A DNA stretch of 64,000 nucleotides from Saprospira sp. CCB-QB6 (lineage in GTDB: Bacteria; Bacteroidota; Bacteroidia; Chitinophagales; Saprospiraceae). The notes below the pieces were generated by a model. It was not told the DNA's origin. It saw only the letters and a list, made by a program, of their open reading frames with translations, and made no database searches. The stretch lies in contig NZ_CP116808.1 of assembly GCF_028464065.1 (NCBI RefSeq), forward strand, positions 1,135,886 through 1,199,885, in the 5' to 3' direction. Positions 18,293 through 46,794 of this stretch are shown piece after piece; position 1 is the stretch's first letter, and the number at the start of each line of letters is the position of its first letter. The position numbers and the translations under genes are program-made.

Positions 18293-18294
18293 AC

Positions 18295-19173
18295 ATGAGC
18301 CAGCAAGTTCGAGATTTAATCAAGAAAGTGCGCAAAATTGAGTTAAGGACCAGAGGCCTTTCTGCTATGGCCTTTTCGGGCAGCTACAAAACCCATTTCA
18401 AGGGTCGAGGGATGTCCTTTAGCGAGCTGCGCAGCTACCAATATGGAGATGATATCCGAAACATTGATTGGAATGTGACGGCCCGCACGGGCACGCCCTA
18501 TATCAAGGTTTTTGAGGAAGAGAGAGAGCAAAATTTTATGCTTTTGGTCGATGTCAGTGCCTCGACCAATTTTGGTAGCCACGATATCAATAAACGGGAG
18601 TTTATGGCTGAGCTGGGCGCCACTTTGGCCCTAGCCGCTATCCGAAATAACGATAAGGTGGGCGTCATCTTTTTTTCCGATAAGATTGAGCAATATTTGC
18701 CCCCCAAAAAAGGGCAAAATCACGGCCTGCGCATTATCCGCGAGCTGTTGCAATGCCAATCAGAAAGTCCACATACCGATATTGACCAAGCCCTCCGCTA
18801 CCTGACGGGCCTAGTGCGCAAGCGCTGCACGGCCTTCCTCTTGTCCGATTTTTTGGACCCCAATTATGGGCGCTACCTCAAGGTGGCCGCTAGCCGACAC
18901 GATTTGGTGGGCCTGCAGGTCTATGATCCCCGAGAAGTAGAACTTCCCAATTTGGGCCTTTTGCCCATTCGAGATGCCGAAACAGGCAATTGGCGCTGGA
19001 TAGATAGCGCCTCACCCAACGTTCGCCAAGCTTATAAAGAGCGCTTTGAGCAACAAACGCAAACTTTTAAAGAGCAGTTTGGCAAATTGGGCATCGATTC
19101 GCTCAGTTTGTGCACCGACCAACCCTTTGTGGGGGCGCTACGGCAGTTTTTCCAAGAACGCCCCGCCTTATAA
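18295..19173 (+). CDS. DUF58 domain protein (vWA-like, MoxR partner)
   Basis: 3 bp after moxR; RGMSFSELRSYQYGDDIRNIDWNVTAR and LLVDVSASTNFGS are typical DUF58. Confidence 0.85.
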   Translation: MSQQVRDLIKKVRKIELRTRGLSAMAFSGSYKTHFKGRGMSFSELRSYQYGDDIRNIDWNVTARTGTPYIKVFEEEREQNFMLLVDVSASTNFGSHDINKREFMAELGATLALAAIRNNDKVGVIFFSDKIEQYLPPKKGQNHGLRIIRELLQCQSESPHTDIDQALRYLTGLVRKRCTAFLLSDFLDPNYGRYLKVAASRHDLVGLQVYDPREVELPNLGLLPIRDAETGNWRWIDSASPNVRQAYKERFEQQTQTFKEQFGKLGIDSLSLCTDQPFVGALRQFFQERPAL

Positions 19174-19253
19174 ATGACCAGAAAATACCATGATGCACCG
19201 CCCTTTGTGGATACGCTATATATATTATTGTTTTTATCCTATGATGAGTAGGA

Positions 19254-19369
19254 TTTGGGGCCTCCTGCCTGCGGCAGGCGCTACCTTCGGCAGCTCGCAG
19301 GTCTGCTCGGCCCTGCGGCCCAAGGGCCTTGGTCTGCGGCTGCGCCGCACTGCCTACGATCGCTAGGCC
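19254..19369 (+). repeat. GC-rich structured interspersed element, copy 8 (subfamily II, core variant)
   Basis: TTTGGGGCCTCCtgcctgcggcagg...GCTCGCAGGTCTGCTCGGCCCTGCGgcccaagggcc...GGTCTGCGG...CGATCGCTAGGCC. Confidence 0.85.
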
Positions 19370-19437
19370 AGGCCAGCCCTTGGCCTATTAGCGAGCTACA
19401 AACCGCAAAAACCAAGGATAGCCAAAGCGAAGAACTT

Positions 19438-19568
19438 CATTGGCTGAGGGATGGAAAGCAGTGGCCGCAGGCCAGACCGAGGCGCTTTGCGCCGAAGGGC
19501 CGAGCGAATAGCGAGCTGCGACAACCAGCCCGCCGCAAGGGCCAAAGGCCCGCAGCGGAGGCCCCAAA
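19438..19568 (-). repeat. GC-rich structured interspersed element, copy 9 (hybrid: subfamily-II 5' part, subfamily-I 3' part)
   Basis: cattGGCTGAGGGATGGaaagcagtggccgcaggccagacc...GGCCGAGCGAATAGCGAGC...gcagcggaggccccAAA; head-to-head with copy 8. Confidence 0.85.
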
Positions 19569-20512
19569 TTATCGCCTTTATTATTGCCTTATTGCTGCCT
19601 GTATTGGGCTATGCCCAGCCCGTCGTCACCTTTTCTGCCGATAGCACCGAGCTTTTGATTGGAGACCAATTGACGGCCAAAATGCGCTTGGAGAGTCGAG
19701 AAGAATTGCTGGTGCGCTTGCCCAATCCCACGGAATATTGGGATAATAAATCGGTGGAAATCATTCGGCTTTCGGAGCAATTGGAGGAAACTAGCCCTGA
19801 GGGCCTCAATAGTTTTGAGAAAAAAATTACGCTGACTTTTTGGGATACGGGCCATTATCAGTTGCCTGATTTACCTTTTGTCTATCAAAAAGATGGAAAA
19901 GTAGACAGCATTTGGGTACAGGTTCCGATGATTCTGGTGAAATTTCCGGCAGGTATTCGGGGCGATTCTACTTATATGGCCCCCATTAAGGATATTATGG
20001 AGGAACCTCAGAGTTTTATGGAAAAACTGCTCGAATGGTTCTTTACTTATTTGCCCATTATTGCGGTGATTCTGCTGATCTTCTTTTTGGGTGGTTTGGG
20101 CTTTTTGGCTTATCTGCTGTACAAAAAGGCGCAGGAGCGCAAGGGACGAAAATCCCCAGAGCAACTGGCTCGTATGGAATTAGAGCGGCTTTTGGCCAAG
20201 GAGCATTTGGAGCGAAACGAGTGGGCGGACTATCACACGGGCATAAGTTGGATTATTCGCACTTATTTGCATCGTCGATTTAAAATTAAGGCATTAGAGG
20301 CGACGACCAATCAGCTTTTGGCTCAGGTGAGTTACGATCAGTTGGAGCAAACCTTAATTTTGGACCTTCGAGAAGTTTTGGAGACGGCGGATTTGGTCAA
20401 ATATGCCAAAGCCTCTCCCTTGGCCGCAGCTAATGATTTTGCCTTAAAATTTATTCATAAAATGTTGGAATATGTAGAGCAGCAGGAAGCGCTCCGCAAT
20501 AGTTCAAATTAA
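19451..20512 (+). CDS. Bat-operon membrane protein (signal peptide, central TM helix; BatX/DUF4381-like); true start uncertain
   Basis: Mature-like signal IIAFIIALLLPVLGYAQP begins at about 19569 immediately after element copy 9 with no in-frame ATG/GTG; the only upstream ATG (19451) lies inside the element. Confidence 0.55.
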   Translation: MESSGRRPDRGALRRRAERIASCDNQPAARAKGPQRRPQIIAFIIALLLPVLGYAQPVVTFSADSTELLIGDQLTAKMRLESREELLVRLPNPTEYWDNKSVEIIRLSEQLEETSPEGLNSFEKKITLTFWDTGHYQLPDLPFVYQKDGKVDSIWVQVPMILVKFPAGIRGDSTYMAPIKDIMEEPQSFMEKLLEWFFTYLPIIAVILLIFFLGGLGFLAYLLYKKAQERKGRKSPEQLARMELERLLAKEHLERNEWADYHTGISWIIRTYLHRRFKIKALEATTNQLLAQVSYDQLEQTLILDLREVLETADLVKYAKASPLAAANDFALKFIHKMLEYVEQQEALRNSSN

Positions 20513-20520
20513 GCTAGAGC

Positions 20521-21522
20521 ATGTCCGATCTTTCATCTATTATTTTTGCACAAGCTTGGGTCTTGCTTCTTTTGCCCTTATTGCCTTTCCTTTGGTATTG
20601 GCGAAAACGGACCCATTATTATGCAGATCTAGAGTTATCTTCTACGGCAGGTTTGGGCCAAACCCAGAGCTGGCGCAGTCGTTTGCGTCCGTTATTGCCT
20701 TGGTTACAAATTTTGGTCTTAGCCCTGTTAGTTTTGGCCCTAGCTCGTCCCCAAAAAGTATTGGTCAAAGAGAGCATCAAGGCTGATGGGATAGATATTG
20801 TTGTCGCCTTAGATGTATCGAGTAGTATGTTGGCTCGTGACTTCAAGGAAGATCGTTTGGATGCTTCAAAGCGGGTTGTTCAAAGTTTTGTTGATCAGCG
20901 GCCTTATGATCGTTTGGGGCTTGTTCTTTTTGCGGGTCGCAGTTATACACAATGTCCATTAACCACAGATCATGGCATGCTCAAGCAGTTGATTAGTCGG
21001 GTAGAATGCGGCTTAATTGAAGAGGGCACGGCCATTGGGATGGGCTTGGCCAATGCGGTGCGTCGTTTACAAAAAAGCCAAGTTAAAAGTAAAGTCATTA
21101 TCTTATTGACAGATGGCGTTAATAATGCGGGACGGATTCCGCCTTTACAAGCGGTAGAAGCCGCCAAAAAGCTGGGCATTAAAGTCTATACGATTGGCGT
21201 AGGGACCAGAGGGCGGGCCTTGGCGCCCATTTACCGCAAAGCCAATGGCAGCTTTGTCTTTAGTCCAACAGAAGTAGAAATTGACGAACAGCTCTTGCAG
21301 CAGATTGCGCAGAGCACCAACGGCCTTTACTTTCGGGCCACAGATGAAAAAAGCTTAGAGAAAATTTACGCTCAGATTGACAAATTGGAGCGTTCAAAAA
21401 TTGAGAAAGAGACCTTTACTCGTCATAAAGAGCTTTATCATTATTTTCTATTTTTAGCGGTTCTTATGCTGCTGCTTCATCTTATTCTTCAACAAACCGT
21501 ATTGCGTAGCATCGTCCAATAG
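20521..21522 (+). CDS. batA: BatA aerotolerance protein (vWA domain, N-terminal TM)
   Basis: vWA MIDAS VALDVSSSM; TDGVNNAG; C-terminal TM; operon position after the MoxR/DUF58 genes. Confidence 0.85.
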   Translation: MSDLSSIIFAQAWVLLLLPLLPFLWYWRKRTHYYADLELSSTAGLGQTQSWRSRLRPLLPWLQILVLALLVLALARPQKVLVKESIKADGIDIVVALDVSSSMLARDFKEDRLDASKRVVQSFVDQRPYDRLGLVLFAGRSYTQCPLTTDHGMLKQLISRVECGLIEEGTAIGMGLANAVRRLQKSQVKSKVIILLTDGVNNAGRIPPLQAVEAAKKLGIKVYTIGVGTRGRALAPIYRKANGSFVFSPTEVEIDEQLLQQIAQSTNGLYFRATDEKSLEKIYAQIDKLERSKIEKETFTRHKELYHYFLFLAVLMLLLHLILQQTVLRSIVQ

Positions 21523-21529
21523 TTTTATT

Positions 21530-22540
21530 ATGCAGTTTGAATCTCCCAGTTTGCTGGCCCTACTAGTCTGCATTCCCCTAATTATCATTCTTTTTATTAG
21601 GGCGCAGCGGGTCAATGCCCAAATTCGGGCGCGTTTTGGCAGTTGGGCTGCTTTTCAGCGGATGATCCCTGCTTTTGCTCCTGGGCGAAACAGGCTCAAG
21701 TTTGCTTTGGCTAGCTTGGCCCTCAGTCTTATGATTTTGGCTTGGGCCAACCCAAGAATGGGAAGTCGGAGCCGTAAAGTAGAGCGGGCTGGCGTAGATG
21801 TTTATTTGGCGCTGGACCTTTCTCGGAGTATGTGGGCCAAGGATGTACAACCTAAGGGATTGGACCGTTTAGAAAAGGCTCGTTTGTTTAGCTTAGAGCT
21901 CTTGCAAGGGTTAGCCAATAATCGAGTGGGACTCATCTTCTTTGCAGGAGAAGCCTTTTTGCAAATGCCTTTGACCTTAGATCATAGTTCGGCTCAGGTT
22001 TTCCTTTATAATGGTTTGGAAGAGGTTGAATTGGTACAGGGAAGTACGCCTGAAAAAGTATTAGAATTGGTCCAGAAATCGGAAATTCAACCAGATGGCA
22101 AACAGCATCAGAAAGCAGTTGTTTTTGTTACTGATGGAGAAGAGCATAACCCCAAAGCCTTGGAAGCGGCCAAACAGGCCCGCCAAAATGGCATTTTTAC
22201 TTATACGATTAGTGTAGGCTCTAGTCAAGGGGCCAAAATTCCTTTGCAAAGAGAAAATGAGTTAGGTTTTCACCAAGATAAGCGAGGAGAGGAAGTGGTA
22301 ACCGCCACCAATAAAAAGATGTTGGCCGAATTGGCCCAAGTGGGCGGCGGCAGAGCCTTTGATATTGACCAAGGGAAAAATATTTTGCCCGCCTTGCTCC
22401 AAGATTTTAAAAAGCTGGAGCAGCAGGAATTTGATGAACTACAATATGATGATTTTGATAGCTATTATCAATATTTGTTGGCTCCTGCCCTACTCTTCCT
22501 CTTCTTTGAGTTTTTTCTGGCCTACCGTAAAAAATCATAA
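21530..22540 (+). CDS. batB: BatB aerotolerance protein (vWA domain)
   Basis: LALDLSRSMWAKD MIDAS; VFVTDGEEHN; terminal TM helix. Confidence 0.85.
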   Translation: MQFESPSLLALLVCIPLIIILFIRAQRVNAQIRARFGSWAAFQRMIPAFAPGRNRLKFALASLALSLMILAWANPRMGSRSRKVERAGVDVYLALDLSRSMWAKDVQPKGLDRLEKARLFSLELLQGLANNRVGLIFFAGEAFLQMPLTLDHSSAQVFLYNGLEEVELVQGSTPEKVLELVQKSEIQPDGKQHQKAVVFVTDGEEHNPKALEAAKQARQNGIFTYTISVGSSQGAKIPLQRENELGFHQDKRGEEVVTATNKKMLAELAQVGGGRAFDIDQGKNILPALLQDFKKLEQQEFDELQYDDFDSYYQYLLAPALLFLFFEFFLAYRKKS

Positions 22541-22543
22541 GCG

Positions 22544-23161
22544 ATGAGAATAATTATTTTTTTTCTGCTAGCGCTGCCCTTTGGGCTATTGGCCCAAGAA
22601 TCTTCTCGTAAGAATCTAATTGAGGGGAATAAATACTATCGCTCTGGAGAGCAAGAAAAGGCGGGACAAAGTTATCAGAAGGCGCTGCAAACGGACCAAA
22701 ACAATAGTAAGGCTTGGTATAATCTGGGCAATGTATTATATAATGCTCAAAATTATGAAGAAGCCGTAGAGCATTATAAACAAGCCATTCAGCAGGCAGA
22801 AAACCCTGAGATTGAAGCTAGGGCCTACCACAATTTAGGCAATGTTTACGCTAAAGAACAAAAGCTAAAAGAAGCGGTAGAATCCTATAAAAATGCGCTG
22901 CGCATTCGGCCCAAAGATGTAGAGACCAAACACAACTTGGCCCAGGTACTGCGGACCATCAAGCAGCAGCAGCCCCCTCCCCCCAAGCCCAAAGATGACG
23001 AAAAGAAAGAACAAGAAGAACAAGAATCTCCCCCTCCAGATGAAATGTCGAAAGATGAGGTGGAACGCATGATGGAGATGATTGAGAAAGAAGATAAAGA
23101 CACCCAAAAGGAAAAGAAAAAGCAACCTAAAAATCGCCAAAATCCAGAAAAAGACTGGTAA
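22544..23161 (+). CDS. batC: BatC aerotolerance protein (TPR repeats plus acidic/lysine-rich tail)
   Basis: TPR-like AWYNLGNVLYNAQNYEEAVEHYKQAIQ repeats; low-complexity KE-rich C-terminus. Confidence 0.8.
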   Translation: MRIIIFFLLALPFGLLAQESSRKNLIEGNKYYRSGEQEKAGQSYQKALQTDQNNSKAWYNLGNVLYNAQNYEEAVEHYKQAIQQAENPEIEARAYHNLGNVYAKEQKLKEAVESYKNALRIRPKDVETKHNLAQVLRTIKQQQPPPPKPKDDEKKEQEEQESPPPDEMSKDEVERMMEMIEKEDKDTQKEKKKQPKNRQNPEKDW

Positions 23162-23243
23162 GCAAATTGTATTTATAATGAGCTGGAGGCCTAGACAGGC
23201 GGCTCCAAGATGTTATTCTTCATTTTTAAATTCAACTGCATAA

Positions 23244-24007
23244 TGAAAACGCTTTTTAGTACTTTGATGGGGCTATTTTTGGCCCTTGGGCTGCAGGCCC
23301 AAATGCCCAGCATTTCTTTGGAAATTCCTTATGATACGGTAGGAACCGAAGATGTTTTTCAATTGCACTACCATATTCAAAATGGGGGGCAAGTAGATTT
23401 CCAACAACCCAACTTTATTGATTTTGAGGTAATTGGCACATCTAGTAGTAGCCAAACTTCTATTATCAATGGGCAGAAAAGCAGCAAAACGACCTATAGT
23501 TTTAGCCTAAAGGCCCGTTATGCGGGTTATTTGGCCCTACCTGCGGCTACGGCCCTTATTGATGGACAGAGCTATAGCAGTCCCAATGGTTCTGTATTCG
23601 TGGTAGAGGGTCCATTGAGAGGAAATGGCCAAAAAGGCAATTTCTTTGGCTTCTCGCCTTTCTCTGAAGAGTCTCCTTTTGGTCAGGGGTTTAATATGCA
23701 GCCCGATGATTTCAATTTGGACAACTTCAACCTAGATCAATTTAATTTTGACAATTTTGATATGCAGGGTTTTGGCAACTTGAGTGATGCCAAAATGCAA
23801 GAATTGATGCAGCGGCAGCAAGAGCTCATGCAGCGTTATCTGCAAAATCCCGACTCCTTGCTCAAGCAACTCGATCCGCAACTTAGAAATATGGACCAAG
23901 AATTTGAGCAGCTTTTCCGCCAAATGGAGGATCAGTTTCCAGGTTTGTTGGGGCCCGACAGCCAACCCCAAAAACAACCCAAAGAGCAGAAAACTTATCG
24001 GCTTTAG
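23244..24007 (+). CDS. BatD N-terminal-domain paralog (secreted; low-complexity FNLDNF/QELMQ tail)
   Basis: Signal MKTLFSTLMGLFLALGLQAQ; the first about 130 aa resemble the N-terminal beta-rich region of the downstream BatD; no TM or C-terminal BatD part. Confidence 0.55.
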
Positions 24008-24020
24008 GGAAAAGGGCTTG

Positions 24021-24154
24021 GCCAAGCGCAGGCTGGCCTAGCGATGTGGAAGGGTGGCCCGAAGGGCCAGACCCAGCCGCCGAAGGCGGCGCAGGGCCGA
24101 GCAGAACTGCGAGCCCTGAAACGTAGCGCCGCAGCTTGCTGCGGAGGCCCCAAA
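24021..24154 (-). repeat. GC-rich structured interspersed element, copy 10 (subfamily II)
   Basis: ggcctagcgatgtgg...ggccagacc...GGCCGAGCAGAACTGCGAGCcctgaaacgtagcgccgcagcttgctgcggaggccccAAA. Confidence 0.9.
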
Positions 24155-24195
24155 TCAATATCTAAGTCAACAACTACCAGATTAAATCAGACGTT

Positions 24196-25947
24196 TTGAA
24201 AAGCTACCAACTCAGTTTACTCCTCCTTAGTTTTTGGGCCATGAGCAGCAGCTTATTGGCCCAAAAAATCGCTTTTGTAGCCGACTGCAATGCTTCTAAG
24301 GTCGTGCTGGGCAATGCCTTTAGAGTCTCTTTTCGGCTAGAAAATGCAGAAATTAAAAAGATTCGATTTCCCGATTTTGAAGGCTTGGGATTTCAGATTG
24401 TGGAAGGGCCTGTGAATGAAAGCCGCTACACGAATATCAACGGCAACCGCTATACTTTTGAGGCTTATACCTTTAGTTTGGCCCCCAATGCGGAGGGAAA
24501 TTATACGATTGGGCCAGCGGAAGTGACCACTTACAATGGGAAAGTGTTGAAAACCATGCCTGTTAAGATTAAATGTGTGGCTCCAAGTAGTAGCAATGTC
24601 CAAAGCCTCAATGACCACAATTTGCCTAAAGAATTAGCGGGCAAGGTGCTTTTTCGGCTAGAATGTGAACATGATTCGGCTGTTGTAGGCGAGCAAATTC
24701 GCCTCAACTACAAGGTGTATACTCAAATTGACATCTCCAATATTGAGTTGGTCAAGGAGCCAGAATTTCCCTCTATGTACACCAAAGAATATCGGTTCTT
24801 TGATAAAGAAGCAAGAGTGGAGGTCATCAATGGGCAGCAATATGCCACAAAAATCATCTACTCGATGGGGGTTTTTCCCTCCAAAAATGGCGAGCTAAGC
24901 ATTCCTCCTGCAGAAATTCTAATCAGTGTGGGCCGCCAAGATCCTCGCAACCCTTTTGCCAGCCGAAAGCTCAAGCAATACCCCTTACTCAGTCTGCCCA
25001 AAACGATCCCCGTTCGCTCACTTTCGGGCCAAGATAAAGATTATACGGGAGCTGTGGGCGAGTATGATTTAGAGCTTTATCTGGAAAAGGATAAAATTAC
25101 GACCGATGAAGCCCTAGAGCTCGTCATGCGCATTCGGGGTTTAGGCGATATTAAACCCATCACGGCTCCGCCCGTCCATTTTGAAGATGGACAATTTAAT
25201 ATTTTAGAGGTCACTCAAAAAGAAGATATTCGGGAAGGTGGCCGTGGCCTTGGTGGAGAAAAAACCTTCACCTATAAAATTGATCCGCAGGAAGTGGGCA
25301 ATTTGAGCTTGCGCCCCAGTTTTGTTTACTTTGATGTGCGCGACCGAAAACTGATTCACATAGATACCAACATAAATATTCAGGTGAGTCAAGGGAAACG
25401 CATTCTCAACAAGGAAGTGGCCGAAAAAGCCATAGATAGCAGTCAGGTCTTAAGTATGCAAGCCCCTTTGAAAACGGCTAGTTGGCGAGCTTATCCCCGT
25501 CCGTTTTTTGGTAGTTATAGCTTTTATTTACTCAGTTTACTGCCCCTTTTGGCCTTTGCAGGAGCCTATGTTTTCATTTTGGGCCGTCAAAAAAGTCAAG
25601 AAATTAAAGAAAAACAAGCCCTCAAACGCGCCCCTTACCAACATGCTCAAGAGCAGCTAGATTTGGCCAAAACTGCGTTGAAAACAGATACCGTAGGCGA
25701 TTTCTACCGCGCCATTGAAGAAGCCCTCAAAGGCTATTTGGGGATGCAACTAGAAGTTCCCTTAGGCGAACGCAGTAAAGAACGCTTGCAATCATTATTG
25801 CCCGAAAAAGAAGCCCGTGAACTAGGCGAAATCCTTGAACATTGCGAGCAAGCTCTTTTTGCGGGACAATCCCCCCATAAAACAATGGAAGAGCAGCTCA
25901 AGCATAGCCAAAAACTCATTAAACAACTCGAAAAACGCCTTGCCTAA
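24196..25947 (+). CDS. batD: BatD aerotolerance protein
   Basis: 583 aa, signal peptide, beta-rich N-terminal half, TM helix (FYLLSLLPLLAFAGAYVFIL), C-terminal helical domain; operon context. Confidence 0.8.
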   Translation: MKSYQLSLLLLSFWAMSSSLLAQKIAFVADCNASKVVLGNAFRVSFRLENAEIKKIRFPDFEGLGFQIVEGPVNESRYTNINGNRYTFEAYTFSLAPNAEGNYTIGPAEVTTYNGKVLKTMPVKIKCVAPSSSNVQSLNDHNLPKELAGKVLFRLECEHDSAVVGEQIRLNYKVYTQIDISNIELVKEPEFPSMYTKEYRFFDKEARVEVINGQQYATKIIYSMGVFPSKNGELSIPPAEILISVGRQDPRNPFASRKLKQYPLLSLPKTIPVRSLSGQDKDYTGAVGEYDLELYLEKDKITTDEALELVMRIRGLGDIKPITAPPVHFEDGQFNILEVTQKEDIREGGRGLGGEKTFTYKIDPQEVGNLSLRPSFVYFDVRDRKLIHIDTNINIQVSQGKRILNKEVAEKAIDSSQVLSMQAPLKTASWRAYPRPFFGSYSFYLLSLLPLLAFAGAYVFILGRQKSQEIKEKQALKRAPYQHAQEQLDLAKTALKTDTVGDFYRAIEEALKGYLGMQLEVPLGERSKERLQSLLPEKEARELGEILEHCEQALFAGQSPHKTMEEQLKHSQKLIKQLEKRLA

Positions 25948-26711
25948 TGCTACGCCTTTTTAGCCTCATTTTGCTCCTTGCCGTAGCCAGCCCAAGCTGG
26001 GCCCAACTGCCCGATAGCTTGGCCAAACAGTTTGCCATTGGCTATGCCCATTACGAAAAAGGAGAGTATGAAAAAGCCCTTTCAGCCTATCAAAAGGCCG
26101 TTTTACCTGGCTATTGCTCGGCCGAATTGCAAAATAACTTGGGCCTAACCTACGAGAAATTAGGCCAATATGGCCCAGCCGTGCTCGCCTTTGAACGCGC
26201 CCTTTTTTGCCAACCCCAATTTGCCGCCGCTCAAGCTAATTTGACCGCTATTTCAGGCAAATTAAGCCGCCCCAAACAAGCCGAAAAAGCAGCTTTTGTC
26301 TTTCGGACCTGGGATAATCTAGCCGCTGGACTCGGCAGTCATTTTTGGGCCTATAGCTTTCTATTTTTTCTCTTTTTGGCCGCAGGCAGCCTCGCTTATT
26401 TCCTTTTTGGTCAAAAAAAACAAGGCAAAAGCTGGTTGATCGTTCTCTTCAGCCTGCTGCTCGCCTTTTTCAGCTTTCTCCTTAGCCGCCGCGCCAATTA
26501 TCTACAATTTGGCCGCCAATGGGCCGTCGTCCTAAGCGAAGAAGCCGCTATTTTAGACAGCCCTTCCATAAAAGGCCAAGAAGTAGAACTGCTCGGCAGC
26601 GGAAATAAAGCCCTCATCTTAGAAGAAAAAGAAGATTGGTATTATGTTCGCTTGCCCAATGCCGTACAAGGCTGGATTTCGGCCAAATTACTAGAAAAAG
26701 TAGCTTCCTAA
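25947..26711 (+). CDS. batE: BatE-like protein (TPR repeat plus TM plus C-terminal SH3b domain)
   Basis: TPR (YEKGEYEKALSAYQKAV, NLGLTYEKLGQYGPAVLAFERAL), TM helices, SH3b-like EDWYYVRLPNAVQGWISAKLLE. Confidence 0.75.
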   Translation: MLRLFSLILLLAVASPSWAQLPDSLAKQFAIGYAHYEKGEYEKALSAYQKAVLPGYCSAELQNNLGLTYEKLGQYGPAVLAFERALFCQPQFAAAQANLTAISGKLSRPKQAEKAAFVFRTWDNLAAGLGSHFWAYSFLFFLFLAAGSLAYFLFGQKKQGKSWLIVLFSLLLAFFSFLLSRRANYLQFGRQWAVVLSEEAAILDSPSIKGQEVELLGSGNKALILEEKEDWYYVRLPNAVQGWISAKLLEKVAS

Positions 26712-26716
26712 TTTTA

Positions 26717-26850
26717 TTTTGGGGCCTCCGCAGCAAAGCTGCGGCGCTACGTTCCGGGGCTCGCTATTCGCTCGGCCCTTCGCAAAAAACAAGTTTTTGC
26801 TCGGTCTGGCCTACGGCCACCCCTACACATCGCTAGGCCAATTGGACCAA
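26717..26850 (+). repeat. GC-rich structured interspersed element, copy 11 (subfamily II)
   Basis: TTTTGGGGCCTCCGCagcaaagctgcgGCGCTACGTTCCGGGGCTCGCTATTCGCTCGGCC...GGTCTGGCCtacggccaCCCCTACACATCGCTAGGCCAATTGGACCAA. Confidence 0.9.
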
Positions 26851-29680: not shown

Positions 29681-29822
29681 GGCCATTTGGCCTAGCGATG
29701 TGTAGGGGTGGCCGAAGGCCAGACCAAAGCCGCCAAAGGCGGCTGCAGGGCCGAGCGAATAGCGAGCCCCGCAGCATAGCGGCGGCCGCCCGCCCTTTAA
29801 GGGGCGGCCGCGGGCCCCAAAA
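29681..29822 (-). repeat. GC-rich structured interspersed element, copy 12 (subfamily II)
   Basis: ggccatttGGCCTAGCGATGTGtaggggtggccgaaggccagacc...GGCCGAGCGAATAGCGAGCcccgcagcatagc...gggccccAAAA. Confidence 0.9.
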
Positions 29823-30586: not shown

Positions 30587-30622
30587 AAAGCCGCCAGCCT
30601 AATCCGCTTGCGGCTTTTTTTT
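30587..30622 (+). terminator. Rho-independent terminator
   Basis: aagccgc-cagcctaatccgctt-gcggctt plus T8. Confidence 0.65.
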
Positions 30623-30682
30623 GCCCTTTTTTATCTGCTTTGGAACTTATCCAGAGGAGGCAGAGTTCTGCTTGCGCTCACA

Positions 30683-30705
30683 CTTAGTTTAAAATCTAAA
30701 CTAAG
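30683..30705. promoter_or_regulatory. Perfect 9-bp inverted repeat (cttagttta-aaatc-taaactaag) 30 bp upstream of MVP start; candidate operator
   Basis: Seen directly; lies in the promoter/5'UTR region of the MVP-like gene. Confidence 0.4.
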
Positions 30706-30734
30706 TCCATATTTAACCTCAAAATCATCCTATT

Positions 30735-33266
30735 ATGGGAGACAGCCGCGAACGTGATTTAGTCCTCGCCCCCAACGAGTACGCCTTTATTTCTGACCAA
30801 ACCAAGGGAAATGTCATTACTTATGTAGGGCCTTATAAAACCAGTATGGCTAATACGGACAAGCCCGTTTTTTTCAATAAAAAGACGAAAGCCTTTGACA
30901 TTTGCGATTTGGATGGCTCTATTCAGACCTTTTGCACGGCCCCAGAAGGCTGGTATATTATCCTGAAAAATCCTGCGATTGATAATAAACCGCCCCAAAT
31001 TGGGACCTCCAACCAGCTTTCTTCTTTGCAGATTGGGCGCAAGGTCAATTTACCTGGTCCCAACTTTTTTGCGCTTTGGCCGGGCCAGATGGCAGAAGTT
31101 TTAGAGGGCCATCATTTGCGCTCCAATGAGTATTTATTGGTCCGTGTGTATGAAGAGGAACAAGCACGAGCCAATTGGGATAATGCCGTAATTACGCCCC
31201 AACATACTCAACCCGAAGGGCTAGAAGACGAGCAGCAACCCAAAGATAGCATTGATGCCAACCGCCTAAGTATGGGCCAATTGCATGTGATAAAAGGAAC
31301 CAATGTTTCCTTTTATATTCCGCCCACAGGGGTTGAAGTGGTTCGAGACAAAAAAGGGAATTATGTCCGCTCTGCAGTGACTTTAGAGCGCCTAGAGTAT
31401 TGCATTTTGCTCGATGAAGATGGCAATAAACGCTATATACAAGGACCCGATGTGGTCTTTCCTCGCCCCACCGAACGCTTTATTGAGAAAAGTGGCAGCC
31501 GAAAATTTAAGGCGATTGAACTAGATGAAAATAGCGGGATTTATGTCAAAATCATTGCCCCCTATACCGAAAATGGCCAAAGCTATAAGGTAGGCGATGA
31601 GCTCTTTATTACGGGCCGAGAACAAATGATTTATTTTCCCCGCCCAGAGCAAGCCCTAATCAAATATGGCGAACAAGAGATCTATCAAGCGGTCGCTATT
31701 CCCCCCGGCGAGGGCCGCTATGTCTTGAATAGAAAGAGCGGAAAAATCAGCCTGCAAAAAGGGCCTGCCATGTTTTTGGCCGACCCCAGAGAGGAAATGA
31801 TTTTGCGCCGCATCCTTAGCCCCAAACAGGTAGAGCTTTGGTTCCCAGGCAATCAAGAAGCCTTGCAATACAACCTCCAACTCCAAGAACTCTCTAAACA
31901 ACAGCAGGTCCGCCTGCGAAAAGCCTCAAAGAAGCGGAATAAACTCAATTTGCCGCCTATGGCCCAACAACAACAGGCCCTTATTGATATGGATTTCTCG
32001 GAGGAGAATGAAGAAGAAGGCGAAAGCGTCTATGAAGGCATCGTCAGCAATTCCTTTTCTCGAAGCCGACAACCCCAAAACAATAATAGTCTGGTCCTCG
32101 ATAGCAAATATGAAGGTGCAGTTACCATCGATGCCTGGACCGGCTATGCTGTTTTGGTCACTAGCAAATTAGGCGACCGCAAAGTGGTGGTGGGCCCAAG
32201 CACTTACCTGCTCGATTATGACGAGGTTCTACAAGGCATTGAGCTCTCTACAGGCACCCCAAAATCTGATAATCAACTGATGCGCACCGTCTATCTCCGC
32301 ATCCTCAATAATAAGGTTTCTGATTTGGTGAGAGTGGAAACTGCCGACTTCTGCGAGCTGGATATCCACCTTTCTTATCGGGTCAATTTTACTGGCGATC
32401 CCGAAAAATGGTTTAATGTAGAGAATTATGTCAAGTTCCTGACCGACCACCTCCGCTCAGTCCTCCGCAATGCCATTAAGCAATATAAATTGGCCGATTT
32501 TTATGCCGAGGGAATTGCCGAATTGCGCAATATCGTCCTCGGTCCCCGAGCCGAAGGCGAGGAACATGACAGCCGCCGCCCTGGCCGACTATTTACCGAA
32601 AATGGTATGCATATCTATGAATTGGAGGTCCTTGATATAGAGATTCTAGACGAGGAAATCCAAGAGTTGCTCTTTGCCAGTAAACACCAAGATATTCGCA
32701 GCCAACTAGAGCTAGACAATAAGCGAAAAGAACTACTCTATAGCCAAGAGACGGAAGAAATGGCCCAGAAAATCGCCGCTAGCCGCTCCAAAACCAAACA
32801 GTTCGCCCTAGAACTCCAAGAAGCCGAAGAAAAACAGGCCCAAATGCTCAAACTGGCTAGCCAAGCCGCCCGCATTGACCTAGAACGCCTAGAACTCACG
32901 GCCCAAATGGAAATGCAAGAAAAAGCCCTAGCCGTTGCTCGCCTACAACGCCAAGATGAGGAAGAAGCTGGCCTACTCCAACTCGAGCTCAAAAAAGGTG
33001 CCCTCGAACAACGCCTCAAAGAATTGGAGGGAGAAGTACTGGCTGTGGTCCAAAAAGCAGAAGCTGTCAGCCCCGATCTGATTGCTGCCCTACAAGCTTT
33101 TGGCGACAAAGCCCTGGCCGAAAAAATGGCCGAAAGCATGGCTCCACTCTCTATTATCGGCGGCAAAAGTATTGTCGAGGTCTTTGGCAATCTGCTGGCC
33201 GGCAGTCCCCTCTCCTATCTACTAGATAAAAAAGGAGAAACTAAAGATCCTGGTTTAGAAGAGTAA
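30735..33266 (+). CDS. Major vault protein (MVP) homolog
   Basis: N-terminal MVP-type repeats (LVLAPNEYAFISDQTKGNVITYVGP); LDENSGIYVKI matches the MVP LDENEGIYVQD segment; ETAD shoulder motif; long C-terminal coiled-coil cap-helix region; 843 aa. Confidence 0.85.
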   Translation: MGDSRERDLVLAPNEYAFISDQTKGNVITYVGPYKTSMANTDKPVFFNKKTKAFDICDLDGSIQTFCTAPEGWYIILKNPAIDNKPPQIGTSNQLSSLQIGRKVNLPGPNFFALWPGQMAEVLEGHHLRSNEYLLVRVYEEEQARANWDNAVITPQHTQPEGLEDEQQPKDSIDANRLSMGQLHVIKGTNVSFYIPPTGVEVVRDKKGNYVRSAVTLERLEYCILLDEDGNKRYIQGPDVVFPRPTERFIEKSGSRKFKAIELDENSGIYVKIIAPYTENGQSYKVGDELFITGREQMIYFPRPEQALIKYGEQEIYQAVAIPPGEGRYVLNRKSGKISLQKGPAMFLADPREEMILRRILSPKQVELWFPGNQEALQYNLQLQELSKQQQVRLRKASKKRNKLNLPPMAQQQQALIDMDFSEENEEEGESVYEGIVSNSFSRSRQPQNNNSLVLDSKYEGAVTIDAWTGYAVLVTSKLGDRKVVVGPSTYLLDYDEVLQGIELSTGTPKSDNQLMRTVYLRILNNKVSDLVRVETADFCELDIHLSYRVNFTGDPEKWFNVENYVKFLTDHLRSVLRNAIKQYKLADFYAEGIAELRNIVLGPRAEGEEHDSRRPGRLFTENGMHIYELEVLDIEILDEEIQELLFASKHQDIRSQLELDNKRKELLYSQETEEMAQKIAASRSKTKQFALELQEAEEKQAQMLKLASQAARIDLERLELTAQMEMQEKALAVARLQRQDEEEAGLLQLELKKGALEQRLKELEGEVLAVVQKAEAVSPDLIAALQAFGDKALAEKMAESMAPLSIIGGKSIVEVFGNLLAGSPLSYLLDKKGETKDPGLEE

Positions 33267-33415
33267 TTTTTGGGGCCTCCCGCCTTCGGGGCGCTATGCT
33301 GCGGGGCTCGCTATTCGCTCGGCCCTGCAGCCGCCTTTGGCGGCTTTGGTCTGGCCTTCGGCCACCCCTTCACATCGCTAGGCCAGTTCTGCGGCCCAAA
33401 GCCGCAGTTGGGCCG
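33267..33415 (+). repeat. GC-rich structured interspersed element, copy 13 (subfamily II, extra 3' hairpin)
   Basis: TTTTTGGGGCCTCCcgccttcggggcgCTATGCTGCGGGGCTCGCTATTCGCTCGGCC...CCCCTTCACATCGCTAGGCCagttctgcggcccaaagccgcag. Confidence 0.9.
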
Positions 33416-33457: not shown

Positions 33458-33496
33458 AAGCGCCCCGCTGCCAATGGCAGCGGGGCGCTCTTTTTG
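33458..33496. terminator. Bidirectional Rho-independent terminator between MVP gene (+) and S9 peptidase (-)
   Basis: Perfect 13-bp stem gcgccccgctgcc-aat-ggcagcggggcgc with a T-run on the + side and a T-rich stretch on the - side. Confidence 0.7.
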
Positions 33497-35450: not shown

Positions 35451-35574
35451 TAATCTTCATTGAGTGAACCAGTTAGTTTTGCTAGGCTTAGCTATTCTAA
35501 TGTAGACTTTAGTATTGGTATATTGCAGTTCTTTAGACTAAAAAAAGATTTCTCTAGACTTAGGCCGCTCCTTT

Positions 35575-35726
35575 TCTGCAGTGTACAGGCCCCGAAGGGG
35601 CCGCAGGCTGACTGGCTTGTAGGGGTGGCCCGAAGGGCCAGACCAAGGGGCGGGACGCCCCGCAGGGCCGAGCAGACTTGCGAGCCCCGAAAAGGCAGGA
35701 CCCGAAGCGCAGCGGAGGGGCAGCCC
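35575..35726 (-). repeat. GC-rich structured interspersed element, copy 14 (degenerate; in divergent promoter region)
   Basis: ...ggccagacc...GGCCGAGCAGACTTGCGAGCcccgaaaaggc...gaggggcagcccc; lacks the terminal AAAA. Confidence 0.75.
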
Positions 35727-35765
35727 CTACATATTAGAGCGGACCTTTTCATAACAACAACTATC

Positions 35766-38700
35766 ATGATGCGCTATTTACTATTGTTGCTTTTACTTTG
35801 GAGTAGTAGGGGGCTTTGGGCCCAGGAAGAAATTGAATTGGTGGTCAGTCAAGGCCACCACAGTCTGGTCCGCTGCCTTGCCTTTTCGCCTGATGGGCGT
35901 TTTTTGGCTACAGCTGGAGATGATCGTAGTCTACGAATTTGGTCCATGCGACTACAACAAGAGTACAAGGTCCTTTGGGGGCATAAAACGGCCATTATGG
36001 ATGTTGGTTTTTCTATAGATGGGCAATTTTTGGTTTCTGTGGGCAGTCGTTTCCTCTGCATTTGGTCTGTCCCTGAAGGGAAATTGTTGCATCAAATTGG
36101 TGTAGATGCAGCTGCTAAACGCTTGCAATTTTCGGCGGCCAAGACAGGATCTGTCATGGTAGAATTACCTGATGGCCCAGCCTGGATCGAACTCGAAAGC
36201 GGGCAGATTGATCTCGCTTCCCTAAAGTTTATGCACAACTGGAGCAACTGGATATTGGGACAAAAAAGCGCCCGTATTATTTTACCTGAACAGCTAGATA
36301 GCATTTGGTCCTATGATTGGACGGGCCAAAGAAAGCAGGCCTTTGTGGGAAAAGGAAGCTATTATAAGATGGTCCTCTCGCCCAATGAACACTATATTGC
36401 TGCCTATTCTGCCAGTAATTCATCGCTTGATTTATGGGACTACCCAACTGGTAAATTGCTGGGCAGTGTAAAGAATCAGCCCATGATTCAAAGCCTCTGC
36501 TTTGATGTTAATGGAAAACAACTTTGGGTCATGGATATGCATGCCGAATGCAAGGTTTATAGCTGCCCCAGCTTAGAAGAAGAAATGACGGTCAATAAAA
36601 AGAGTTGGGACCCTCAAACGATGAGCAAGGCCAACTTTATCCAAATTAACATAGGCCATCAGATTCGCCCTAGCCCTAATGGCCAATTTATGGGCCTAGC
36701 CCTTACCCGAACAGAGGTCAATCGAAAGACCAATAAGATGAATGATCTTCGTGGAGTACAGCTGATTGATGCCCAAACAGGCCAAGAACGTGGCCTGTTT
36801 AAAGGACATTTTAAGTGGATTACACAACTGGGACTTTCTCCTAAGGGCAAAAAATTGCTTTCTATCAATCTGGGCAAAACTAGAGGGCTACGCTCTTGGG
36901 CCCTCAACAAAGGAGAAATCGAGCGCTATATCCATAGCTCCCAAAGCTTTAGTCAAAGTCAAGATAAAGAGCATTTGGCCCTGCTAGAATATCCCGAAAA
37001 AGCCAATCCTGAACTCACAGTTTACCAACTGCCCAACTTTAGAAAAGTGGCCCAAAAGGAGCTGGATAATTGCAGTGCCTTTGCCCTTAGTGGCGATGGC
37101 AAAAAAATCGCCGCTCTTAGGGTAGACCCCAACCTCAAAAATCCGCTCAACAACCGCTTTTATTACTCGATTTGGAGCCTACCTAAGTATAAATTGGAGC
37201 AAGAAATCGAGATCAGTAGTAAGGAGTCCGCTATCCCCATGTTTGAAAGTATGCTACTCGATTCTGCAGGCGATTACCTCATTGCTGCCGCCCAAAATCA
37301 AGCCTATAGCATCGAGCTGAAAAGCCAAAAACGCATTCCCTTTGTTCTCCCTGAAGAGACAACTTATTGGGAAATGCTTTGCCTACACCCCCATTTACCT
37401 CAAGTCCTTTTTGCCATTTCTGATGTCAAATATAATAGCCAAACAAAACAGCCTGAGGTCCTCTGCCACATACTTGTCTATAATTACAAAACAGGAGAAC
37501 TCTTGGCCGATATCCCCACCAAAGAGGAAGGCATCTTTAAAACGGCCGACTTTAGCCCCGATGGTAAATATCTACTCACTGGACAAACCGCCTATCAATC
37601 TGTAATCAATTTTGATGTGCTGCTCTGGGATTGGTCCAGCAAACAACTCCTCTGCCGATTCCCTGGCCACAATGGCGGTATTCATGATGTAGCCTTTGAC
37701 CCTCTAGGCAAAAAGGCCTATAGCTGCTCCGAAGATGGACTTATTAAGGCTTGGGATATTGAAAAATGCGCTCTAGCCGCCTCTTTTATTGGCTACAATG
37801 AGCTCGATTATCTAATCATCTCTCCCGAAAATTATTATAAAACTAGCCAAAGTAATACCGCTGGTCTCGGCTTTAGATATGATGGAGACCTCTACACCTA
37901 TGACCAATTTGATCTGCGCTTTAACCGCCCAGATAAGGTCCTTGCCGCCTTTACCGATGCCCAACGCAAACTCAATATCTATAATAAGGCCTGGAAGAAA
38001 CGAGTCCGCCGCCTTGGCTTTACAGAAGAACAACTGGAACAAGAGCTAGACCTCCCCCAACTCCAAATTGTCGATCAACTAAAGCTGCCTATTTATATTG
38101 AAGATAGCCTCATCCAACTACAAATTACAGCCTTCGATGCCCAACACCCCCTAAAAAAACTCCGCATCTTTGTCAATGGCGTGCCCTACCCCAATGCCGA
38201 AGGCCTAAAACTGAAGACGGCCGCAGGCGATAGCCTCCAACAACAGCTAAGCATTCCACTAGGTCAAGGCCCCAATAAAATCCAGATTTCGGTCCTCAAT
38301 GCCGCGGGGCTAGAAAGTGCCCGACAAAGCTTCCAACTCGCCTATCAACCCAAGGTCAAACAAACTAGCCAACTCTATTTTCTAGGCCTAGGGGTTAGCC
38401 AGTTTAAAGATAGTAGCCGCAATCTTCAATATCCCCAAAAGGATGCACAGGACCTAGCCCAAGCCTTGGCCAAATCGCGTACCCCAAACAACTTCCACCA
38501 ACTTTTACTCGACCCCAATACGGATATGGCCGACCTCCTAAAAACCGCCAAGACCTTTCTGCAAAAGGCCAAGATCAATGACCAAATTGTCTTTTATATC
38601 TCCTCTCATGGCCTGCTAGACGATAGCCTAAACTATTACCTAGCCCTGCCCCAAAGCCAATTTGACCAACCCCAAAACGGTAGCTGGGCCTATGAAGATG

Positions 38701-39194
38701 TGGAGCAACTACTGGATGGTCTCCCCTGCCGCAATCGCCTGTTGCTACTCGATGCCTGCCACTCTGGAGAAGTCGATAAGGAGGTGGAAACCGAAAAGAA
38801 ATCGGTCAGTAGCTTTGCCCAAAATATCCTCAAACGAAGCAAGTCAGGTAGCACACAAATACGCCCCAAAACGGGACTCAACAATTCTTTTGCCTATATG
38901 AAGGCCCTCTTTTCGGACCTAGAACAGCAGACGGGCGTAACTGTCATCTCGGCCGCAGGCGGCTTTGAGCTGGCCTACGAGTCCGATGAATGGGGCAATG
39001 GCCTCTTTACCTACGCCCTCTTAGAAGGCCTCAAGAGCAAGCAGGCCGACCTCAATGGCAATGGCGAAATCCCCATCCTCGAGCTGCGAGATTTCCTCAG
39101 CCAAAGGGTTTTAGAACTCAGCCAAGGCCAACAACAACCTACCGCCCGCCAATCCAATGTCTTTAATAACTTTATCCTTTACCGTTATGATTAG
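35766..39194 (+). CDS. Secreted WD40-repeat protein fused to a C-terminal caspase-like (peptidase C14) domain
   Basis: Signal [20 protein letters not shown]; WD40 repeats ([31 protein letters not shown] etc.); caspase catalytic dyad YISSHG (His) and [10 protein letters not shown] (Cys). The ORF-track start 35460 is an extension through element copy 14. Confidence 0.8.
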   Translation: [1142 protein letters not shown]

Positions 39195-39203
39195 TTTTTT
39201 TTC

Positions 39204-39331
39204 TTTTGGGGCCTCCGCTGCGGCCAAAGGCCTTGCGGCGCTACGTTTCGGGGCTCGCAAGTCTGCTCGGCCCTGCGCCGCTAAAGCGGCTGGGTCTGGC
39301 CCTACGGGCCACCCCTACACATCGCTAGGCC
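39204..39331 (+). repeat. GC-rich structured interspersed element, copy 15 (subfamily II, core variant)
   Basis: TTTTGGGGCCTCCGCtgcggccaaaggccttgcgGCGCTACGTTTCGGGGCTCGCAAGTCTGCTCGGCC...GGTCTGGCC...CCCCTACACATCGCTAGGCC. Confidence 0.9.
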
Positions 39332-41555: not shown

Positions 41556-41647
41556 TTACTTTTAGGTGTTTAACTTGGGGGGTTACTAAAGTGTAATTAC
41601 AGCCAAGCTCTACTTTTGTGGGGCTTGTTTTTTTTGTGGGCGTGGAT

Positions 41648-41765
41648 GGCCTAGCGATGCGACGGGGTGGCCGTCAGGCCAGACCAAGGCGGCTTCGCCG
41701 CCGCAGGGCCGAGCAGACCTGCGAGCCCCAAAGCGTAGCGCCTGCCGCAGGCAGGAGGCCCCAAA
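41648..41765 (-). repeat. GC-rich structured interspersed element, copy 16 (subfamily II, core variant)
   Basis: GGCCTAGCGATGcgacggggtggccgtcaggccagacc...GGCCGAGCAGACCTGCGAGCcccaaagcgtagcgcctgccgcaggcaggaggccccAAA. Confidence 0.9.
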
Positions 41766-46633: not shown

Positions 46634-46794
46634 GGGGCCTCCGCTGCGGCTTCGCCTTGCGGCGCTACGTTCCGCAGCTCGCTATTACTTGCTTCGCTGC
46701 GTCGGCTCCCGTTGGTCGGGTCGCTCGGCCCTGCGCCGCCTAAGGCGGCTTGGTCTGGCCTAACGGCCACTGCTGCACATCGCTAGGCCAATTG
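46629..46794 (+). repeat. GC-rich structured interspersed element, copy 17 (subfamily II, with about 30-bp insertion)
   Basis: TTTTGGGGCCTCCGCtgcggcttcgccttgcgGCGCTACGTTCCGCAGCTCGCTATTActtgcttcgctgcgtcggctcccgttggtcgggtCGCTCGGCC...CTGCTGCACATCGCTAGGCCAATTG. Confidence 0.9.

Follow-up and report, generated by a model that had tools for sequence, protein, structure and literature searches.

What the vault does in the cell has been an open question since 1986, and the prokaryotic homologues of its major vault protein (MVP) are likewise of unknown function (10.1101/2023.11.10.566534; PMC12962969). Work from 2025–2026 has connected the human particle to NAD: NAD+ and ADP-ribose are bound at the MVP shoulder, where a pocket lies between the shoulder domains and R504, K506 and R511 of the "keyhole loop" hold the NAD+ diphosphate (PMC12280208), and TEP1 is an NADase inside the vault (10.64898/2026.05.01.722283). 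Here I describe a bacterial MVP homologue encoded in a 64-kb stretch of the Saprospira sp. CCB-QB6 genome (contig NZ_CP116808.1, positions 1,135,886 to 1,199,885; hereafter the window), together with the perfect palindrome in its promoter. Judged by its sequence, this palindrome matches the operator that NAD-metabolism genes of the same lineage carry; the regulator is most probably NrtR, the Nudix-related repressor of NAD metabolism.

The protein has been in the literature since 2013 and is no discovery in itself. Its Saprospira grandis orthologue, H6L4P8 (WP_015691617.1), was listed among putative bacterial MVP homologues by Daly et al. (2013; PMC3762200) and analysed again by Sokolskyi (2019; 10.1101/872010); phage and Asgard homologues have been reported since, and all these papers state the prokaryotic function as unknown. 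H6L4P8, from S. grandis Lewin, has the same domain architecture as the window protein and falls with it in one 90%-identity cluster, and the MVP shoulder, Band 7 similarity and coiled coil were already noted in both papers, whereas neither treats the promoter, an operator or a link to NAD or NrtR. A full-text literature search for a paper joining NrtR with the vault returned none. The database names differ: the exact window protein (WP_272620610.1) is annotated "hypothetical protein", while H6L4P8 is a "Major vault protein" in UniProt and an "SPFH domain-containing protein" at NCBI.

Bacterial relatives had been called sporadic in an initial annotation of the window made from the sequence alone, which does not hold. 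A search for MVP-like proteins returned 1257 representatives of 50%-identity clusters at E ≤ 1e-3 (624 at E ≤ 1e-30), at least 150 of them full-length or nearly so, with 39–64% identity. Two exact peptide patterns further placed relatives in at least 265 GTDB species genomes (53–68% identity), spanning Bacteroidota, Myxococcota, Chloroflexota, Riflebacteria, Sericytochromatia, Desulfobacterota and others.

On the regulatory side, the closest described systems are the operators of the NrtR family. NrtR represses NAD genes, and the S. oneidensis and Synechocystis proteins come off DNA in vitro when ADP-ribose is added (PMC2330246). The Bacteroides member of the family, BtAraR, is a repressor whose operators have been validated and crystallised, and for which tandem sites are typical (PMC4666351); 23-bp NrtR palindromes are known in mycobacteria (PMC6800001), the M. 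smegmatis operator being GTTTTCGA-N7-TCGAAAAC. As in the Saprospira lineage, the operators of S. oneidensis, Synechocystis, M. smegmatis and BtAraR are palindromes of 21–23 bp, located in the promoters of nrtR itself as well as NAD genes.

The promoter palindrome and its conservation

The gene and the elements recognised in its promoter region are as follows.

30735–33266, plus strand: MVP-family coding sequence, ATG start, 843 amino acids (WP_272620610.1, Saprospira sp. CCB-QB6)
30682–30706, no strand assigned: perfect palindrome ACTTAGTTTA-AAATC-TAAACTAAGT (10+5+10 bp), read as an NrtR-type operator, ending 28 nt before the ATG
30660–30682, plus strand: putative remnant of a first, decayed operator copy (GCAGAGTTCT...), adjoining the perfect one, placed from the position of the first tandem site
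30708–30715, plus strand: candidate Bacteroidota −7 box CATATTTA (consensus TAnnTTTG), 2 nt after the palindrome, proposed from position and similarity
30639–30646, plus strand: conserved TTTG/GGAAC element, separated by 14 nt from the first (decayed) operator half-site downstream of it

The initial annotation had reported an inverted repeat with 9-bp arms; the repeat is indeed perfect, and each arm extends one base further. When up to three mismatches are allowed, the 9-N5-9 pattern occurs as a single site in the window, against 0.07 expected. Perfect 9-bp hairpins of any sequence are frequent there, with 36 overlapping matches (∼19 distinct) compared with 2.35 expected from first-order Markov simulations, and most of the distinct ones look G+C-rich and terminator-like.

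I then compared the promoters of orthologous genes in S. grandis DSM 2844, in Saprospira and Aureispira metagenome-assembled genomes (MAGs; with DSM 2844, loci L001–L010) and in the metagenome locus L111. The motif CTTAGTTTA-N5-TAAACTAAG is kept in 12 of the 12 Saprospiraceae loci examined, 47–144 nt upstream of the MVP-like start and often as two abutting copies, and no other site with two or fewer mismatches is found in the 1.22 Mb of the 80 MVP loci collected across many phyla. Two abutting 23-bp sites are present in the Saprospira MAGs L002–L005 and in L111; in the window, the first copy retains five of the nine bases of the left half-site.

A palindrome that folds at −12.4 kcal/mol (z-score −3.1), 28 nt from a start codon, could also be a gene-specific RNA hairpin in the 5′ leader, acting on stability, attenuation or translation. 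The pattern of substitutions argues against this. Across 18 MVP-linked sites, 28 positions depart from the consensus and only one of these is compensated, several orthologues keep just 5–7 of the nine pairs, and variation is free in the loop but nearly absent from the left arm; conservation of this kind marks a protein-binding site, not an RNA helix. Furthermore, the same sequence precedes unrelated genes, no T-run follows the palindrome, and in the NAD promoters described below the −7 box lies downstream of the site, which would thus not be transcribed. The hairpin was rejected for its lack of covariation, and I regard it as very improbable.

The TTTG/GGAAC element could represent a Bacteroidota-type −33 promoter region. 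In the MVP promoters of L001–L009 and L111, though not of L010, [G/T]GAAC precedes the first CTTAG half-site by 14 nt; in the window and in L001, that first half-site is the decayed one. The GAAC element also precedes nadA in Aureispira anguillae (L205 7900–7905), and TGAAC-N14 precedes nadA in S. grandis Lewin (L203 7716–7720). Alternatively, it could be an extra regulator contact or the −35 box of an extracytoplasmic function (ECF) sigma factor. As an ECF promoter specific to the MVP-like gene this is not supported, since the same GGAAC-N14 precedes nadA, and the TTTG −33 reading is more likely. An ECF sigma factor gene does lie divergent from nadA in S. grandis (L203 7035–7613). A sigma-70 consensus scan returned nothing relevant before the MVP-like gene, which is what one would expect in Bacteroidota. 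The Bacteroidetes SOS/LexA-like box CTAA-N5-TTAG (PMC8565304) was also considered for the palindrome and rejected, as the order here is TTAG...CTAA, with N13 between.

Sharing of the operator with NAD-metabolism genes

Scanning metagenome contigs for the exact pattern returned at least 120 loci. Among the matches listed, 93 of 121 motif sites are intergenic and one locus adjoins an MVP-like gene, while the recurrent flanking genes are pncB (four loci, in three of which nrtR follows), nadA (five), nadE, prs and pntA, as well as genes for ADP_ribosyl_GH (three), Nuc_deoxyri_tr2 (two), Band_7 (two) and J-domain/kinase-like (four) proteins. A second set of loci was fetched by protein homology and not by motif. 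Together, the motif is found with genes of NAD metabolism at the following loci.

pncB-nrtR: L085, L187, L178 (metagenome), L201
nadA: L103, L125, L135, L171, L199, L203, L205, L207–L209
nadE: L131
prs: L136

In the homology-derived set, the site lies immediately before pncB-nrtR in a Saprospiraceae MAG (L201), a degenerate copy occupies the same position in Flavilitoribacter nigricans, and the Aureispira anguillae nadA carries it as well (L205). For Saprospira itself, S. grandis strains were used in place of CCB-QB6: in Lewin, DSM 2844 and CP110854, two abutting sites followed by a −7 box, TTATATTTG, lie upstream of nadA, and in DSM 2844 these nadA sites and the perfect MVP site are on one scaffold. 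The operator is thus shared between the MVP-like gene and NAD genes across the lineage, and within the same genome in S. grandis. The dedicated regulation suggested by the initial annotation has to be given up, as pncB-nrtR, nadA, nadE, prs and ADP-ribosylglycohydrolase genes also have this motif in front of them.

The identity of the regulator is suggested by the proteins encoded behind pncB. Three of these, of 232–239 amino acids, combine a NUDIX domain with NrtR_WHD (PF21906, E ∼1e-26), and the named homologues among the best 120 come from Flavilitoribacter, Phaeodactylibacter, Lewinella and Saprospiraceae. In the PDB, the best matches are BtAraR 5bs6 (1e-50) and 3gz5 (8e-37), the latter of which I take to be S. 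oneidensis NrtR. The operator itself agrees with this assignment: the AGTnTA-N5-TAnACT geometry (7-N5-7) equals that of the validated BtAraR sites AAAGTGTAAAAAAGACACTT and AAAGTGTTACTTTTACAC, with the half-site AGT(G/T)TA and tandem copies in common, although the half-site here has TTTA in place of TGTA. In the operator-bearing NAD promoters, a −7 box (TATATTTG or CATATTTG) lies ∼2–10 nt after the site and a second site often follows. Since the site abuts the TAnnTTTG box and a second one follows it, this is the arrangement expected of a repressor.

Several points weigh against this assignment. An NrtR homologue was not found in the window or in the fetched Saprospira and Aureispira loci, to which the search was confined, and the best 120 NrtR homologues come from sister families of Saprospira. 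The published core, GT-N7-AC, is only approximated, the palindrome having TT-N7-AA with GT-N11-AC, and the promoter boxes in the window are weak matches. Many of the metagenome loci flank unrelated genes (phosphotransferase system components, GH28, a phage portal), so the exact pattern also picks up background or other regulators. Finally, some members of the family respond to sugars or to NAD and not to ADP-ribose (PMC4666351), and for this reason the effector in Saprospira is assumed.

The missing Saprospira nrtR and the inexact core would also fit binding by a different regulator of NAD genes, for example an unrecognised helix-turn-helix (HTH) protein, with the nrtR behind pncB a passenger. 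AGTTTA-N5-TAAACT resembles the enterobacterial NadR box, TGTTTA-N6-TAAACA, as quoted in PMC2330246; however, HTH-bearing NadR is restricted to enterobacteria (PMC2330246). The order site-pncB-nrtR in four independent loci is moreover the classical autoregulated layout by which NrtR motifs are defined, and the spacing, length and half-site of the palindrome fit the crystallised BtAraR operator. I therefore consider a different regulator improbable, if less so than the RNA hairpin.

It is likely, on these comparisons, that the window encodes an MVP-family protein from a stand-alone gene with an NrtR-type operator in its promoter, and that the gene is co-regulated with NAD genes in a manner linked to ADP-ribose. 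Because the palindrome is read as an NrtR operator, the MVP-like gene is assigned to the NAD/ADP-ribose regulon. NrtR would bind the palindrome and repress the gene together with nadA, pncB-nrtR, nadE, prs and the ADP-ribosylglycohydrolase genes; by analogy with the described systems, a build-up of ADP-ribose, as NAD is being consumed, would switch it on. The operator match thus predicts ADP-ribose-responsive expression of a bacterial vault-protein homologue. If true, this would be regulatory, independent evidence for an old connection of MVP with NAD and ADP-ribose, and would offer a tractable bacterial system of one gene, one repressor and one small-molecule signal. It also gives a testable lead on the function of the vault protein, in parallel with the NAD+ and ADP-ribose binding and the NADase of the human vault.

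Similar sites are found outside the Saprospiraceae. In the non-Saprospiraceae loci, AGTKTA-N5-TAMACT (with at most one mismatch) occurs eight times in the 19.9 kb directly upstream of MVP-like genes, compared with once in 126 kb of other intergenic DNA and five times in 917 kb of coding sequence, a ∼50-fold enrichment over the other intergenic DNA of the same loci. The eight upstream matches come from Cytophagales (including Thermoflexibacter and Bernardetiaceae), one Anaerolineae MAG and two Sericytochromatia MAGs. AGTGTA-N5-TACACT, which has the same geometry and half-site as validated sites of the BtAraR/NrtR family, is located as follows relative to the MVP-like start.

L013: −134
L017: −193
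L026: −233
L036: −150
L038: −60
L039: −58
L068: −50

The motif scan also points to further candidate members of the regulon. In the available part of PMC2330246, the tables of NrtR regulons hold no MVP homologue and no Band_7, J-domain/kinase-like or nucleoside deoxyribosyltransferase (NDT)-like genes. In L084, L130, L170 and L183, a J-domain-like protein of 263–300 amino acids with a weak "Kinase-like" match is encoded behind two NrtR-type operators placed around a TATATTTG −7 box, and L129 has the same two-operator layout before a separate protein of 305 amino acids with no Pfam match; both look like uncharacterised members of a Saprospirales NAD/ADP-ribose regulon. PF15891 (NDT-like) and PF03747 (ADP-ribosylglycohydrolase) genes carry the operator in L169 (1812–1834), L198 (3580–3602), L143, L168 and L182, so the predicted regulon covers ADP-ribose and nucleotide turnover besides NAD synthesis. 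The Aureispira anguillae PF15891 gene (L205 5256–5780), 2.7 kb upstream of nadA, has no site with three or fewer mismatches before it. In L121 (9037–9200), at least five tandem related half-palindromes (TTAGTTTG-N5-CAAAGTAAG) precede a GH28 glycoside hydrolase gene, and may be sites of a sugar-responsive NrtR/AraR-type paralogue and not of the NAD type.

The protein, eukaryotic vaults and SPFH cages

The window protein is divided as follows.

30735–32306, plus strand: N-terminal MVP-type beta-repeat region, aa 1–524, defined by Foldseek, GP motifs and Vault_3 at aa 481–521
31887–32114, plus strand: variable low-complexity insert between repeats, aa 385–460, predicted helix then disorder
32241–32264, plus strand: loop E503–K510 (ELSTGTPK), aligned by profile with the human MVP keyhole loop
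32307–32651, plus strand: shoulder (SPFH-type) domain, aa 525–639, with ETAD at aa 535–538 (PF11978; pLDDT, the predicted local distance difference test, 71–89)
32652–33059, plus strand: cap-helix, a predicted single helix of ∼135 residues, aa 640–775 (DSSP on the model, pLDDT 77–90)
33060–33263, plus strand: conserved C-terminal segment, aa 776–843, AVSPDLIAALQAFGDKALAEKMAESMAPLS..., with no counterpart aligned in eukaryotic MVP

PF11978 (MVP_shoulder) is matched at E = 2.9e-31 and 108 bits (cutoff 25), over aa 525–639 and model positions 2–118 of 118, and PF17795 (Vault_3) at E = 4.3e-7 and 30.4 bits (cutoff 28.8), over aa 481–521 and for one repeat only; both are matched by 43 of the 43 aligned family members. 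Band_7 is below threshold in the window protein, as is Vault_4 (E = 0.11). Human and rat MVP are recovered with a profile built from the family at E = 8e-24, positions 466–776 being collinear with residues 467–810, a stretch that spans the last repeat, the shoulder and the cap-helix; along the latter, the alignment with human MVP continues over residues 647–810. The shoulder region alone aligns with rat MVP 478–676. A weak match to human residues 275–409 (∼R6–R8, by my own assignment; domain E = 0.24) adds profile positions 218–351 as the other stretch alignable to human MVP. A full-length phmmer search against the PDB missed MVP, and I suspect that the long coiled coil interfered.

The repeats are recognisable by fold and weak profile matches only. 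As in MVP repeats, the motif G-x(n)-GP appears several times, at aa 32, 108, 237, 343 and 487, and weak internal repeats were found in the N-terminal region. This region was modeled separately (aa 1–384, AF2 on 119 sequences, pLDDT 66.7), and this model replaces the N-terminal half of the full-length one. Its best 16 Foldseek matches in the PDB are all MVP, led by the murine R1–R7 structure 3gng (E = 1.3e-9, 403 columns), with no non-MVP match below E = 0.01; TM-scores are low (0.25), as expected of a flexible elongated model. For the full-length AlphaFold model, which is confident only for the shoulder and the helix at aa 640–775, the top 12 PDB matches are likewise all MVP (E ∼1e-15, 810–890 aligned columns), and SPFH cages form a second tier (E ∼1e-5 to 1e-3).

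The window protein is thus a genuine MVP homologue, as the initial annotation had proposed. The shoulder profile, the ETAD motif (within VETADF, aa 534–539) and the long C-terminal cap-helix it named are borne out. Its N-terminal MVP-type repeats stand by fold, with weak profile matches, while the PF01505 (Vault) profile it suggested as a check does not detect them. The LDENSGIYVKI string that it matched to the eukaryotic LDENEGIYVQD is present (ELDENSGIYVKI, aa 262–273), but belongs to a motif that recurs among the repeats, and in the profile alignment it falls one repeat away from the human segment with which it was paired.

Against the vault assignment, PF01505 is not matched by the window protein, and three of the 43 relatives only reach E ≥ 0.043; the full-length model is poor (mean pLDDT 55.9, predicted TM-score 0.27); and no experimental report of a bacterial vault, or of cage assembly by any bacterial homologue, was found in the literature. 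The insert at aa 385–460 is unconserved in the family consensus, has pLDDT below 50 for aa 399–461 and lies outside the stretches aligned with human MVP. At the other end, pLDDT is below 50 for aa 776–843, yet invariant columns concentrate at aa 777–812 and the last ∼65 residues (AVSPDLIAALQAFGDKALAEKMAESMAPLSI.GGKS...) belong to the best-conserved stretches of the bacterial family. No Pfam match covers this segment, and the human alignment ends at profile position 776; it might close the cap or act as a docking site.

Compared with rat and human MVP (4V60, 9BW5, 3GNG), the bacterial protein has the same collinear order of repeats, SPFH shoulder and cap-helix, the latter two at nearly equal residue numbers, the same fold over R1–R7 and over the full length, and the GP repeat, ETAD and S-x-G-x-P-K loop motifs. 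It differs in its low identity (14–19% over structural alignments), in the variable ∼75-aa insert, in a C-terminus that cannot be aligned to the region beyond the eukaryotic cap-helix, and in the absence of TEP1, PARP4 and vault RNA genes near it. With the SPFH cages (HflK/C, flotillin, stomatin, prohibitin, erlin), which form closed domes, it shares the SPFH domain and long wall helix; unlike it, they are anchored in the membrane and have no N-terminal repeat array. If MVP and other SPFH cages are a guide, the window protein would most likely assemble by itself into a closed homo-oligomer, shaped like a cup or barrel and held together by lateral repeat and shoulder contacts, with the cap helices bundling.

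The protein could instead be an ordinary SPFH-type peripheral membrane scaffold, as flotillin or HflK/C, for which the vault likeness would be architectural only and control by NrtR a general coupling to stress or growth, biochemically unconnected to NAD or ADP-ribose. Band_7 matches 34 of the 43 family members, SPFH cages are the next-best structural matches, NCBI labels the orthologues as SPFH proteins, a plain Band_7 protein lies behind two such operators (L083, L088), and most residues of the human NAD+ pocket are unconserved. However, no transmembrane segment or hydrophobic anchor is predicted (maximum Kyte-Doolittle 19-residue score 1.31), the fold of the N-terminal repeat array (524 aa) is specific to MVP, S505, P509 and K510 are invariant and G507 nearly so in the 43 family members, and palindromes of NrtR geometry are enriched upstream of MVP-like genes in other phyla. 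I hold this scaffold reading to be doubtful.

The plain SPFH/Band_7 protein of L083 and L088 has 336–348 amino acids (PF01145, E = 2.5e-13) and lies downstream of two exact sites in L083 (1398–1468), and of one exact site with a degenerate second copy in L088 (4215–4237). It is a second SPFH-superfamily protein in the same predicted regulon as the MVP homologue. As a close paralogue of the MVP shoulder, the L083 protein was rejected (hhalign probability 3%).

In the keyhole loop, human S501-A-G503-R-P505-K506 is aligned with bacterial S505-T-G507-T-P509-K510. Only four human residues of the loop are kept (S501, G503, P505 and K506), whereas R504, R507, R511, D521, F522 and W545 are not conserved and most arginines of the NAD+ pocket are absent, which weighs against the main reading. 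From the alignment, the loop is conserved in position and partly in chemistry, and a nucleotide pocket there is no more than a possibility. A tentative extension of the vault reading, to which I give no more credence than to the membrane scaffold, is that bacterial MVP cages take part in ADP-ribose-responsive NAD homeostasis, being induced during NAD breakdown and binding or sequestering NAD+ or ADP-ribose at S505-G507-P509-K510, and that this link is ancestral and pre-eukaryotic. If true, the connection of the human vault with NAD and ADP-ribose (PARP4, the TEP1 NADase, the MVP shoulder ligands) would predate eukaryotes, and the palindromes in Cytophagales, Anaerolineae and Sericytochromatia would reflect the same coupling of MVP and NAD.

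Transcription unit, neighbouring genes and repeats

The following elements delimit the MVP-like gene.

30591–30622, plus strand: terminator-like hairpin and T-run at the end of the upstream PIG-L deacetylase gene, GCCGCCAGC-CTAATCC-GCTTGCGGC then T8, read from the sequence
33292–33385, no strand assigned: G+C-rich intergenic repeat copy of ∼100 nt, directly after the MVP stop codon, 98.9% identical to 29688–29781
33459–33489, no strand assigned: bidirectional intrinsic terminator common to the convergent S9 peptidase gene, 14–16 paired bases, 12 of them G-C, on both strands

The 30591–30622 hairpin was not listed by a consensus terminator scanner, but is also present, perfectly paired, in S. 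grandis DSM 2844 (L001). Because terminators lie on both sides and no neighbouring family recurs, the MVP-like gene is a stand-alone transcription unit. Across the 80 loci, the intergenic gaps on either side of MVP-like genes are mostly >100 bp and the commonest neighbouring family is found in just 10, so there is no operon partner to hint at function. The initial annotation saw no TEP1, vPARP or vault RNA partners nearby, and searches agree: TROVE, NACHT and PARP domains and TEP1 are absent from the 20 open reading frames scanned (9231 to 43945), and no Rfam family, vault RNA included, reaches the gathering threshold anywhere in the window. PADLOC returned no defence-family match for the MVP protein.

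The region before the MVP-like gene holds a Bat/MoxR aerotolerance-type operon, a DUF4197 gene and genes for proteins secreted by the type IX secretion system (T9SS). The operon (17297–26711, plus strand), which has no relation to the MVP finding, encodes a MoxR AAA_3 ATPase, a DUF58 protein, the product of an unannotated open reading frame, BatA (vWA), a second vWA protein, a TPR protein, two BatD-domain proteins and a TPR-SH3 protein, and is followed by the DUF4197 and T9SS-sorted proteins. Two genes downstream of the MVP-like gene (35460–39194, plus strand), a 1244-aa protein combines WD40 beta-propellers with a C-terminal caspase domain (Peptidase_C14), and has a weak PADLOC "caspase" match (E = 2.8e-7). 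It was ruled out as a TEP1 homologue, being without TROVE or NACHT and having generic WD40 matches. Its true start is probably near the MMRYLLLLLLLW signal-like segment, the spurious N-terminus being inflated by a G+C-rich repeat.

The ∼100-nt G+C-rich repeat belongs to a family with more than 15 related copies in the window (blastn), further ones being at 9048–9147, 24034–24131, 26742–26845, 39204–39331, 41647–41748, 46721–46794, 52827–52923 and others. A similar G+C-rich sequence was recognised by eye in the long 5′ leader of S. grandis nadA (L203 7790–7950). The repeat looks like an element of the repetitive extragenic palindromic (REP) or miniature inverted-repeat transposable element (MITE) type.

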